A stretch of 64,000 nucleotides of DNA from Escherichia coli (GTDB taxonomy: Bacteria; Pseudomonadota; Gammaproteobacteria; Enterobacterales; Enterobacteriaceae). Below are positions 1-62,971 of the stretch, one piece after another (positions within the stretch are counted from its first letter, which is position 1; each line of letters starts with the position of its first letter). Under the pieces are notes generated by a model. The model did no database searches, was not told the origin of the DNA, and saw nothing but the letters and a program-made list of their open reading frames with translations. Position numbers and translations under genes: made by a program. The stretch is taken from the NCBI RefSeq assembly GCF_017348835.2, contig NZ_CP071375.1; one strand, written 5' to 3'.

Positions 1-427
1 TATTTAACAGTTGGCAATTATCACATAATAATGTGTGTAAATTGATGGTGGATTGATGCAAATTTGTTAATTGCAATGGTGTTAGCTGCGGTTGTGTGCT
101 CAAAAAATAATCTGCAATGGGCGTGGGTTGACGATATATAATATATTCTCCGTTAAGATGATTTTTGGTATCTCATTAAAAAACAAGTCATTTTTTCTTG
201 ATTGCATTTTGTTATCAGAAACAACTAGCTTTTTCTTTTATGACTATTCCCATCGCAGAAAACGATGTGTCATTTTAAATCGATGCGCGGAAATATTTAA
301 CTTGAACAAGCGGAAATAAATAGAGCAGCTATTCAGATTATTCTTTATGTTGGGGCTATTAAGGTTATGTTAATTGTAGCTTTGCTATGCTAGTAGTAGA
401 TTTTTGATAAATGTTTTATGGTCACAA

Positions 428-988
428 ATGAACGTGAGTAAATATGTCGCTATCTTTTCCTTTGTTTTTATTCAGTTAATCAGCGTTGGTAAAGTTTTTG
501 CTAACGCAGATGAGTGGATGACAACGTTTAGAGAAAATATTGCACAAACCTGGCAACAGCCTGAACATTATGATTTATATATTCCTGCCATCACCTGGCA
601 TGCACGTTTCGCTTACGACAAAGAAAAAACCGATCGCTATAACGAGCGACCGTGGGGTGGCGGTTTTGGCCTGTCGCGTTGGGATGAAAAAGGAAACTGG
701 CATGGCCTGTATGCCATGGCATTTAAGGACTCGTGGAACAAATGGGAACCGATTGCCGGATACGGATGGGAAAGTACCTGGCGACCGCTGGCGGATGAAA
801 ATTTTCATTTAGGTCTGGGATTCACCGCTGGCGTAACGGCACGCGATAACTGGAATTACATCCCTCTCCCGGTTCTACTGCCATTGGCCTCCGTGGGTTA
901 TGGTCCAGTGACTTTTCAGATGACCTACATTCCGGGTACCTACAACAATGGCAATGTGTACTTTGCCTGGATGCGCTTTCAGTTTTGA
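428..988 (+). CDS. pagP: Lipid A palmitoyltransferase PagP (outer-membrane beta-barrel)
   Basis: ORF 404..988 translation matches PagP; start moved to the internal ATG at 428 (MNVSKYV...), giving 186 aa with an N-terminal signal peptide. Confidence 0.9.
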
Positions 989-1162
989 GACAAATGAAGT
1001 TTTAGTAAATTCTTTAAAATCAATCACTAAAATAATTAACATCAAAAATAACGCGACTTTTATCACTTTTTAGTGAAGTTGCACTGGACAAAGCGTACCA
1101 CAATTGGTGTACTGGTAACCGACACAGCATTTGTGTCTATTTTTCATGTAAAGGTAATTTTG

Positions 1163-1372
1163 ATGTCTAAGATTAAAGGTAACGTTAAGTGGTTTAATGA
1201 GTCCAAAGGATTCGGTTTCATTACTCCGGAAGACGGCAGCAAAGACGTGTTCGTACACTTCTCTGCAATCCAGACTAATGGTTTTAAAACTCTTGCTGAA
1301 GGTCAGCGCGTAGAGTTCGAAATCACTAACGGTGCCAAAGGCCCTTCTGCTGCAAACGTAATCGCTCTGTAA
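1163..1372 (+). CDS. cspE: Cold-shock-domain protein CspE
   Basis: C-terminal 69 aa of ORF 1073..1372 ([20 protein letters not shown]...) is a CspA-family protein; ATG at 1163. Confidence 0.93.
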
Positions 1373-1392
1373 GATACGTCAGCAAGAATTCA

Positions 1393-1420
1393 AAACCCGC
1401 TTAATCAGCGGGTTTTTTTT
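1393..1420. terminator. Rho-independent terminator between convergent cspE and crcB
   Basis: GC stem aaacccgc/gcgggttt with loop, followed by an 8-T run on the + strand. Confidence 0.8.
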
Positions 1421-1895: not shown

Positions 1896-2690
1896 GTGGC
1901 AATGCTGGTTGCTGCAGGACAGTTTGCTGTTACATCTGTGTGGGAAAAGAACGCTGAGATTTGTGCCTCGTTGATGGCGCAGGCGGCGGAAAACGACGTA
2001 TCGCTGTTTGTCCTGCCGGAAGCATTGCTGGCGCGCGATGATCATGATGCGGATCTATCGGTTAAATCAGCACAGCTGCTGGAAGGCGAATTCCTCGGGC
2101 GTTTACGGCGAGAAAGTAAACGTAACATGATGACGACAATTCTGACGATTCATGTTCCTTCAACGCCGGGGCGCGCATGGAATATGCTGGTGGCGCTACA
2201 GGCAGGAAACATTGTCGCCCGTTATGCCAAACTGCATCTCTATGATGCATTTGCCATTCAGGAATCACGCCATGTTGATGCTGGTAATGAAATAGCTCCG
2301 TTACTGGAGGTGGAAGGGATGAAGGTCGGTCTGATGACCTGTTATGACTTACGCTTTCCAGAGCTGGCGCTGGCACAGGCATTACAGGGAGCTGAAATCC
2401 TGGTGCTTCCTGCCGCCTGGGTTCGCGGGCCGCTCAAAGAGCATCACTGGTCAACGTTGCTTGCCGCTCGTGCGCTGGATACCACCTGTTATATGGTGGC
2501 GGCGGGGGAGTGCGGGAACAAAAATATCGGGCAAAGCCGGATTATAGATCCCTTTGGCGTCACCATTGCGGCAGCGTCAGAAATGCCTGCACTCATTATG
2601 GCGGAAGTGACGCCCGAACGTGTGCGTCAGGTGCGCGCGCAACTGCCCGTCTTAAACAACCGTCGCTTTGCGCCGCCGCAATTATTATGA
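1896..2690 (+). CDS. ybeM: Carbon-nitrogen hydrolase (nitrilase superfamily) YbeM, intact reading frame
   Basis: 264-aa ORF with strong RBS (aggagg) upstream of ATG 1896; nitrilase-family features (E...K...C triad region, [10 protein letters not shown]). Confidence 0.8.
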
Positions 2691-31621: not shown

Positions 31622-32017
31622 ATCCAACTCCTTTATCTTCTGCGTTAAAAACGCATGGATACTCGTTGTGAGTGTTTGTGTTGTTATCATCTGCAACTTT
31701 ATTGTGCAGTGTTGTGCTTGTTAGGTAACATTTAGTTTGGCTAAATGTAAAGATAATGCTGTTTTATTGTTTGTTTTTGCGAGATGCGCCGCACCATTCC
31801 GAAGCAAAATTCTTAAAATGCACTCTTTTGGTGCTACCGATGGATTGCTGTGGTGCAACCGGGTTGTACTGATGCTGGTTCAAGCTTTGCCTTGTATAAC
31901 AAAGCAATAGATGTGCCAAAGTTGGATAGGAGAATATTGTTATCCGGATAATGCACTGATGCCGCATCCGGTGAGCGTGCCGAAATATGGGATGTATTCC
32001 GGCACGATAAGAAGGGA

Positions 32018-41852: not shown

Positions 41853-42098
41853 AACCTTCTCCGTTAACCTGGTATTTGTTGCTTGTTGTGTTTGCTTGTT
41901 TAAAAAAATGCCGCAAAGCAGCACTGTGCGCAAGCGATTTGGCGGTGAAAAAATAAAAAACGTAATGGTGATTGCTGATTTGTGAAAAAGGGGAGGGTGC
42001 GGTGATGTATTTATTAATGGATCGATAATTTTTGGCGGGTTTTATTGAATGTTTATATTTTACGGGGGCCAAATTGCTGACAAAGTGCGATTTGTTCA

Positions 42099-42198
42099 TG
42101 CCGGATGCGGCGTGAACGCCTTATTCGGCCTACAAAAGCATGAAAATTCAATAAATTGCAGGAGCTGCGTAGGCCTGATAAGCGTAGCGCATCAGGCA
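42099..42198. repeat. REP/BIME cluster between asnB and umpH
   Basis: tgccggatgcggcgtgaacgccttattcggcctac and gtaggcctgataagcgtagcgcatcaggca palindromic units. Confidence 0.7.
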
Positions 42199-42248
42199 GT
42201 TTGGCGTTTGTCATCAGAGCCAACCACGTCCGCAGACGTGGTTGCTAT

Positions 42249-50448: not shown

Positions 50449-50611
50449 GCCGGATGGGGCGTTTACGTCGCATCCGGCAAGGAACAGACAAACAGTTTCA
50501 AACGCTAAATTGCCTGATGCGCTACGCTTATCAGGCCTACATGATCTCTGCAATATATTGAGTTTGCGTGCTTTTGTAGGCCGGATAAGGCGTTCACGCC
50601 GCATCCGGCAA
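50449..50611. repeat. BIME: three REP palindromic units downstream of glnS
   Basis: Units at about 50449-50480, 50512-50541 and 50577-50611 in alternating orientation. Confidence 0.7.
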
Positions 50612-50629
50612 GAAATATGCAAACAATCC

Positions 50630-57875: not shown

Positions 57876-57893
57876 ACACATTAAATAATAAAT

Positions 57894-57919
57894 ATCCTCC
57901 GGCATAGCCGGAGGTTTTT
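57894..57919 (+). terminator. Rho-independent terminator after pgm
   Basis: cctccgg-catag-ccggagg followed by T5. Confidence 0.7.
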
Positions 57920-58600
57920 CAAATGCGCCTATAAGGCTCTCTTACCAGCCGCGCCCTAACAGGCGCACACGATCTGACATTTGCATCCAACTTCGTTACT
58001 TACGGCCCGTAAACGGGCTGCCCGGATAGGGAATCGATAACTGCTCTACCATTTTATCCTCTTCAAGCTGGTGCTTTATGTAATCCTGTATCTTCGCCGT
58101 GTTCTTACCCACTGTATCGACGTAGTACCCTCTGCACCAGAACTCCCTGTTCCTGTATTTGAATTTCAAATCACCAAACTGCTCGTAAAGCATCAGACTG
58201 CTTTTCCCTTCCAGATATCCCATAAAGCCGGATACGCTCATTTTGGGCGGGATCTCCACAAGCATATGGATATGATCTGCACAGCATTCAGCTTCCAGAA
58301 TCCGTACACTTTTCCACTCACACAGCTTTCTCAAAATACTGCCTATTGCTCTACGCTTCTCTCTGTAGAACACCTGTCTTCGATATTTTGGCGCAAAAAC
58401 TATGTGATATTTACAGTTCCATCGGGTGTGCGCTAAGCTCTTTTCGTTCCCCATTGGGACCCCCTTTTGATTTCTTGTTTGACACTTGCAGTTGCCAGAC
58501 CGCAAGGTGTTTTAACAAATCAAAAGGGGTTTTAATAACTGGCTCAAAGCTGAAAGCTTTCCGGAACCCCCAGCCTAGCTGGGGGTTTTCTGTGCACAAG
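57900..58600 (-). mobile_element. IS200-family insertion sequence (IS200/IS605 family), boundaries approximate
   Basis: Contains an IS200-type Y1 transposase gene; the 5' side has a perfect hairpin (58566-58588) and a long-range inverted repeat (58461-58471 / 58527-58537) around the tnpA RBS; size is about 0.7 kb. Confidence 0.6.
57996..58454 (-). CDS. tnpA: IS200-type Y1 (HUH) transposase TnpA
   Basis: 152 aa from MGNEKSLAHTRWNCKYHIVFAPKYRR...; HUH motif HIHMLV and catalytic Tyr region; closely resembles Salmonella IS200 TnpA by recall. Confidence 0.85.
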   Translation of the reverse strand: MGNEKSLAHTRWNCKYHIVFAPKYRRQVFYREKRRAIGSILRKLCEWKSVRILEAECCADHIHMLVEIPPKMSVSGFMGYLEGKSSLMLYEQFGDLKFKYRNREFWCRGYYVDTVGKNTAKIQDYIKHQLEEDKMVEQLSIPYPGSPFTGRK

Positions 58601-58631
58601 AAAAAGGGCGGTCGCAAGATCGCCCTTTTTT
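58601..58631 (-). terminator. Rho-independent terminator of speF-potE
   Basis: Minus-strand hairpin gggcgatcttgcgaccgccc flanked by A6/T5, immediately after the potE stop. Confidence 0.75.
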
Positions 58632-62157: not shown

Positions 62158-62309
62158 TTTGTTCATCTCTTTATTTCAGGTAATAGCAGGTCCTCAATTT
62201 CTCAAAGGAGAAATCGATCACGCCGGAAAAAAAGCAAAGCTCCACCGCTGATAAATAAATCAGTAGTTTGCTTTTTGCAGATGCAATAACCCAGACCAGC
62301 CCGGTAACT

Positions 62310-62490
62310 GGCTATACTCGTCATACTTCAAGTTGCATGTGCTGCGTCTGCGTTCGCTCACCCCAGTCACTTACTCATGTAAGCTCCTGGGGATTCACTC
62401 GCTTGTCGCCTTCCTGCAACTCGAATTATTTAGAGTATATACTCGTCATACTTCAAGTTGCATATGCTGCGACTCGAATTATGTAGAGTT
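62310..62490. repeat. ERIC (enterobacterial repetitive intergenic consensus / IRU) element with an adjacent core-deleted partial copy
   Basis: atgtaagctcctggggattcac (62377-62398) and cgctcaccccagtcacttac (62355-62374) match the ERIC core by recall; end segments 62314-62346 and 62419-62435 are repeated directly at 62439-62488. Confidence 0.6.
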
Positions 62491-62592
62491 TAAAAGGGTT
62501 AGCAGTATATGAGCACCGAGGGATACAGGTATTAACCTGTAATGCTTAAAGTCAGGGAGACCTGTACGCTGGGGTGCCCTTTAGTCAGAAGA

Positions 62593-62697
62593 CTAGCGGG
62601 CATTAAAGAAATGAAAGTCAAAACTATTACGATGGGCAAACTTCATGATATGGGTTGTCCGCCTTATATGAGGCATTAAGCGGTTATTATTTTCCAT
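62593..62697 (-). CDS. speFL: speFL leader peptide (ornithine-sensing arrest peptide), 34 codons
   Basis: Reverse-strand ATG at 62697 to TAG at 62593 translates to MENNNRLMPHIRRTTHIMKFAHRNSFDFHFFNAR; too short for the ORF track. Confidence 0.75.
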   Translation of the reverse strand: MENNNRLMPHIRRTTHIMKFAHRNSFDFHFFNAR

Positions 62698-62893
62698 TTA
62701 CCTTTACCTCTTGCTGTGTCAGTTGAAGGTAGAGTTATTCTATCCATGAAATGGCTATAATCTGTGAAGAAGATCAACAAAAAACGATCATACCCCAGAT
62801 AATAAATCATTAATTATGAATAGCGCCATATTAGACGCTGTTTTGTTATTTAAATGTTGTAATTTTGTGTTTTATATTTGCGTTAAGAAATTA

Positions 62894-62926
62894 AACCTGC
62901 CAAATAATAATATTTGGTGCAGGTTT
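62894..62926 (-). terminator. Possible terminator hairpin downstream of kdpE
   Basis: aaacctgc...gcaggttt imperfect stem in an AT-rich region. Confidence 0.35.
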
Positions 62927-62971
62927 AATAATAAATTAATCACTATTTAAGCGAATTTATTGAATAACAAT

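Follow-up and report, generated by a model that had tools for sequence, protein, structure and literature searches.

Deaminated glutathione (dGSH) is a side-product of transaminases that is hydrolyzed to 2-oxoglutarate and cysteinylglycine, a reaction belonging to metabolite repair (PMC7041631, PMC10452834). Among the described proteins, the closest to the one studied here is YbeM of BL21(DE3) and O157:H7 (WP_000959109.1), which likewise comprises 262 aa, is encoded at the same locus (crcB-ybeM-tatE) and has the same NCBIfam assignment. It contains Arg124, whereas the protein of our strain contains His124, as is the case in ST131 and many other strains. At the DNA level, b4581 of K-12 MG1655 is orthologous to the gene (98.5% identity) and resides in the same neighbourhood, but it is frameshifted while the frame is open here. 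The Nit domain of NitFhit (1EMS) and yeast 'Nit2' (4H5U/4HGD) share the carbon-nitrogen hydrolase fold with YbeM and possess a Glu-Lys-Cys triad that can be aligned with it. Their similarity to YbeM is only moderate, though, and YbeM is shorter, without the Fhit fusion or the eukaryotic insertions. YafV, the omega-amidase of E. coli, and mammalian Nit2, also an omega-amidase, have the superfamily and the catalytic chemistry in common with YbeM, but they represent another branch with another expected substrate. Peracchi et al. (2017, PNAS 114:E3233) reportedly showed dGSH amidase activity for the E. coli Nit1 homologue YbeM. Judging from the UniRef and NCBIfam names, the BL21 protein is probably tied to this biochemical assay.

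The gene ybeM, what it does and its frameshift in K-12 have all been described before. In this study we compared the gene of a further E. coli strain with these systems. With a probability of about 90%, the region from 1902 to 2690 represents a functional ybeM allele, whose product is predicted from the sequence to be a Nit1-type amidase of 262 aa hydrolyzing dGSH.

Reading frame and neighbourhood of ybeM

The window, i.e., the whole 64-kb stretch of DNA that was analyzed, is collinear with positions 656,130-722,084 of the K-12 MG1655 genome, at an identity of ~98.5%. Around ybeM the genes are arranged in the conserved order pagP, cspE, crcB (minus strand), ybeM, tatE, lipA (minus strand) and ybeF (minus strand). 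The 1-kb region around ybeM, searched for with a 1001-bp query, occurs in 5424 out of 5426 complete genomes of E. coli. The pig isolate PE164 proved to be 100% identical to the window across 24 kb.

According to the ORF listing, the plus strand contains one ORF between 1896 and 2690, which codes for 264 aa when counted from a GTG at 1896 and is devoid of internal stop codons. Reading the sequence directly, we identified the Shine-Dalgarno sequence AGGAGG on the plus strand (1891-1896), followed by a spacer of 5 nt and an ATG at 1902. Since the GTG at 1896 overlaps with the Shine-Dalgarno sequence, the ATG is preferred as start codon. The true start of ybeM is thus almost certainly ATG 1902, resulting in a CDS from 1902 to 2690 (plus strand) composed of 262 codons and a stop codon. 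In the RefSeq annotation of PE164, the identical DNA is given as a 789-nt CDS encoding a protein of 262 aa (WP_001305561.1). A chance ORF can be dismissed because the Pfam domain CN_hydrolase (PF00795) matches residues 3-245 of the translation product (E=4.2e-41). The ORF, the PF00795 match, the NCBIfam model NF033621 (see below) and the PE164 annotation together led to the designation of this CDS as ybeM, predicted to encode a Nit1-type deaminated glutathione amidase. In the preliminary description of the locus, an intact ybeM carbon-nitrogen hydrolase frame had been proposed, uninterrupted over 264 codons and equipped with a strong ribosome binding site. Our data affirm the intact frame, its affiliation and the AGGAGG sequence, while the count has to be corrected to 262 codons starting from ATG 1902.

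The spacer between crcB and ybeM (1810-1901) has a length of 92 bp. A fluoride riboswitch was not detected in it by Rfam at the gathering threshold. Scanning the spacer for a simple sigma-70 consensus yielded no promoter on the plus strand, an outcome that is uninformative and not truly negative, and one oriented towards crcB. Many strains (e.g., NY1601 and AR_0372) match the 1001-bp query across 1004 bp at this place. In NY1601 there are 3 extra bp upstream of the ybeM start, by which the gene begins at position 406 of the locus instead of 403; the protein is unchanged. Further upstream, the Rfam cspA thermoregulator was found at 972-1420 (plus strand), where it spans the leader and the coding region of cspE (134 bits vs. 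a gathering threshold of 78), as expected for a paralogue of cspA.

Within ybeM, a synonymous G at position 2099 (Gly66 encoded by GGG, not GGA) is common to only four of the 5426 complete genomes, namely PE164, XJ34, XJ6-3 and F2_81, whose hosts are pigs and cattle. This nucleotide assigns the window to a lineage that is rarely encountered. Genomes ranking next revealed only ~98.2-98.4% identity over 24 kb.

Family assignment, catalytic residues and predicted reaction

YbeM matched PF00795 with 141.4 bits (cut-off 23.2), and the match to residues 3-245 of 262 covers positions 2-255 of the 256 profile positions. Against the NCBIfam model NF033621 (de_GSH_amidase), the protein scored 451.5 bits at a curated cut-off of 355, the alignment extending from position 2 to 260 of a profile of 260 positions. 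YbeM of the window and WP_000959109.1 of BL21(DE3)/O157:H7, which bears the UniRef name YBEM_ECO57, 'Deaminated glutathione amidase', are identical at 261 of 262 residues, the sole difference being H124R. The exact protein of the window is present on at least 1000 public contigs; His124 also occurs in ST131 and on at least 1000 contigs.

When YbeM was compared with solved structures, the Nit domain of C. elegans NitFhit (1EMS) gave the best match (106 bits, 1.7e-29), followed by yeast 'Nit2' (4H5U; 97 bits, 1.1e-26). Mouse Nit2 (2W1V; 82 bits, 4e-22) and yeast Nit3 (1F89; 75 bits, 6e-20) ranked lower. Glu40, Lys110 and Cys147 of YbeM align with Glu54, Lys127 and Cys169 of NitFhit, the numbers of the latter being computed from alignment offsets; these three NitFhit residues are the catalytic ones. 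Glu40, the general base of the nitrilase-superfamily triad, is encoded by GAA at 2019-2021 and belongs to the motif 'LPE', the catalytic lysine Lys110 by AAA at 2229-2231 (motif 'KLHL'), and the nucleophile Cys147 by TGT at 2340-2342, all on the plus strand. Cys147 corresponds to the cysteine of the 'CYD' motif in both NitFhit and yeast Nit2; for the latter protein, this column contains Cys in the wild-type structure 4H5U and Ser in 4HGD. The triad, whose presence the preliminary description had left to be checked, is thus complete by alignment. Between the catalytic lysine and cysteine, a further glutamate of the motif 'ES' (Glu121, GAA, 2262-2264, plus strand) is conserved in the same structure alignments with NitFhit and yeast Nit2. 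In the superfamily a conserved second glutamate contributes to catalysis, a role that Glu121 may well fulfil.

An omega-amidase of the Nit2/YafV type, acting mainly on 2-oxoglutaramate or 2-oxosuccinamate and not on dGSH, would show the same fold and the same triad, and the triad cannot tell substrate specificity. The matches to mouse Nit2 and yeast Nit3 are significant too. On the other hand, YbeM passed the dGSH amidase model, but stayed far below the cut-off of the YafV-type amidohydrolase model NF007757 (61.5 vs. 249 bits). Moreover, the Nit1-type structures outscored those of the Nit2 type, and the virtually identical UniRef protein is named a deaminated glutathione amidase. An omega-amidase is therefore very unlikely.

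The activity of a dGSH amidase and the individual chemical steps can be sketched for YbeM from what is typical of the family. The useless side-product dGSH arises by the action of transaminases on glutathione. The thiolate of Cys147, activated by Glu40, would then attack the amide carbonyl of dGSH, whereupon cysteinylglycine would leave and a thioester acyl-enzyme stabilized by Lys110 would form. Finally, 2-oxoglutarate would be freed from the acyl-enzyme by water.

The K-12 lesion and the distribution of ybeM alleles

In the genome of MG1655 (NC_000913.3), ybeM (b4581, 658031..658818) is annotated as a pseudogene, and PGAP labels the K-12 allele 'frameshifted'. By global pairwise alignment, the 789 nt of the window and the 788 nt of K-12 were found to differ in 12 substitutions and one 1-bp deletion. 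The nucleotide deleted in K-12 is G2101 of the window (plus strand), which lies within codon 67 (CGT); its presence or absence was also followed by junction-specific megablast (see below). Because this single base is missing, K-12 translation reads LYGEKVNVT past the deletion and stops at codon 76. The truncated product, ending at residue 75, retains Glu40 but has neither Lys110 nor Cys147. The tentative remark in the preliminary description that ybeM is annotated as disrupted in K-12 was therefore correct, and the alignment with K-12 suggested there has located the cause.

The deleted G resides in the sequence GGACGTTT, which contains no homopolymer run. For this reason the deletion is regarded as a one-off lesion, and a slippage-prone site leading to phase variation is unlikely. 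A sequencing error in K-12 was ruled out, as the identical junction exists in 860 independent complete genomes. K-12 additionally carries the private substitutions V33A and V37A, which are absent from EC2, a strain in which the site of the deletion has also lost 1 bp. These substitutions are consistent with decay or relaxed constraint after inactivation of the gene.

The frequency of both alleles was determined by megablast with junction-specific queries, the length of which forces a 28-base word across the deletion site, in the set of 5426 complete E. coli genomes. The undeleted junction, represented by a 55-mer centred on the G, was present in 4487 genomes (~83%), and the K-12 deletion junction (54-mer, 100% identical) in 860 (~16%). 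Carriers of the deletion comprise laboratory derivatives of K-12 and NCTC86, in addition to many isolates of human, poultry, pig, river water, seawater or soil origin. Intact ybeM is hence the majority state and presumably also the ancestral one. The deletion allele, which K-12 shares with a related natural lineage, is a natural marker of lineage. The statement that ybeM is intact in this strain is true, but it describes no peculiarity of the strain; K-12 is the exception. As the gene is ordinary and its intact state normal, the discovery value of the locus is small.

At this locus, the frameshift allele of EcN_Sk (NZ_CP172017.1) simply reflects a K-12-like background, since its flanking ~20 kb are ~99.4-99.95% identical to K-12. 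In addition, the ybeQ-hscC cluster and the greater part of ybeF are missing from EcN_Sk. The O166:H15 strain JNE21-003 (NZ_AP041809.1, 3831-5925) displays an independent lesion, in which ISEc62 (istA/istB), an element of the IS21 family, interrupts ybeM close to the 3′-end of the gene.

One may ask whether the open frame of this strain is without function as well, the gene being silent or decaying in this lineage too. The gene is clearly dispensable, considering the frameshift in 860 genomes and the IS21-family insertion in another strain, and the consensus scan disclosed no promoter on the plus strand. The intact 789-nt gene, however, occurs in ST131, O157:H7 and BL21(DE3), and the open frame with its strong ribosome binding site is thus maintained across phylogroups. 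The intact alleles compared (ST131, O157:H7, BL21 and this strain) differ from each other by 6-15 nucleotides but only by 0-2 amino acids, which indicates purifying selection on intact ybeM. In addition, all catalytic residues are kept, and changes in the ybeM transcript have been reported for CFT073, in which the gene is differentially expressed (PMC5320621). A gene without function is consequently very improbable, and we adhere to the interpretation of 1902-2690 as a functional dGSH amidase gene.

K-12 is not representative at ybeM, as it is devoid of a glutathione-damage repair enzyme kept by ~83% of the sequenced E. coli. Metabolic models and metabolomics based on K-12 therefore miss the dGSH reaction. 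Furthermore, K-12 ybeM counts as a pseudogene in the literature and serves there as a neutral site for insertions (PMC7242477); in most natural strains this site would not be neutral. In UTI89, overexpression of short out-of-frame ybeM fragments (112, 87 and 29 bp) causes filamentation, but full-length ybeM does not have this effect (PMC6206680). One of the fragments encodes MFLQRRGAH (PMC6206680). Frame-0 translation revealed that this peptide belongs to the frame entered by the K-12 frameshift, but is located past its first stop codon.

A putative NsrR half-site in ybeM and further features of the window

A motif scan identified the 11-bp sequence ATGATGCATTT on the plus strand at 2242-2252, corresponding to +341..351 of ybeM. 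It agrees in 10 of 11 bases with AAGATGCATTT, the half-site of NsrR as it occurs in the ytfE site. No other sequence of the window comes within one mismatch of this half-site, but 1.86 such matches are expected by chance, so that the count alone is not significant. In CFT073, an NsrR ChIP-seq peak was reported 345 bp into ybeM, which is also bound in K-12 (PMC5320621). The position of ATGATGCATTT coincides with this published peak.

These data touch on the question of whether selection favoured losing ybeM in the lineage of K-12 instead of the gene decaying neutrally, or whether the intragenic NsrR site at 2242-2252 could lend the locus a regulatory function under nitrosative stress which outlasts the enzyme. 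In the former case, ~16% of the complete genomes would share the 1-bp deletion as a natural polymorphism of an entire lineage, and the independent IS21-family insertion would point to recurrent loss. Both possibilities appear very unlikely.

Apart from ybeM, several other parts of the window deviate from K-12. In the interval between pgm and potE, the K-12 segment ybfP-ybfG-ybfI (~1.7 kb) is replaced by ~0.7 kb (57,892-58,619). This insert contains a tnpA gene of the IS200/IS605 family at ~57,996-58,454 (minus strand) and, just upstream of it, a match to Rfam STnc490 (58,464-58,587, minus strand). Between gltI and lnt (~31,721-31,725), IS5D of K-12 (687,851-689,045) is missing and the flanks join seamlessly; BL21(DE3) harbors a gene for a rhomboid-family protease at this spot. 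The region from the speF leader to kdpE (62,299-62,970) shows no alignment with K-12, whose counterpart is ~220 bp shorter. In the PE164 annotation of this region, speFL (~62,593-62,697, minus strand) is overlapped by a 'hypothetical protein' of 44 aa (~62,676-62,810, minus strand). The window also contains short dispersed repeats at 42,074-42,214 and 50,499-50,615, each showing 84-91% identity to the K-12 counterpart of the other, in both orientations. They are probably intergenic repeats of the REP/BIME type, and one of them overlaps with a match to the Rfam sRNA ES036 (CssrF) at 42,134-42,176.
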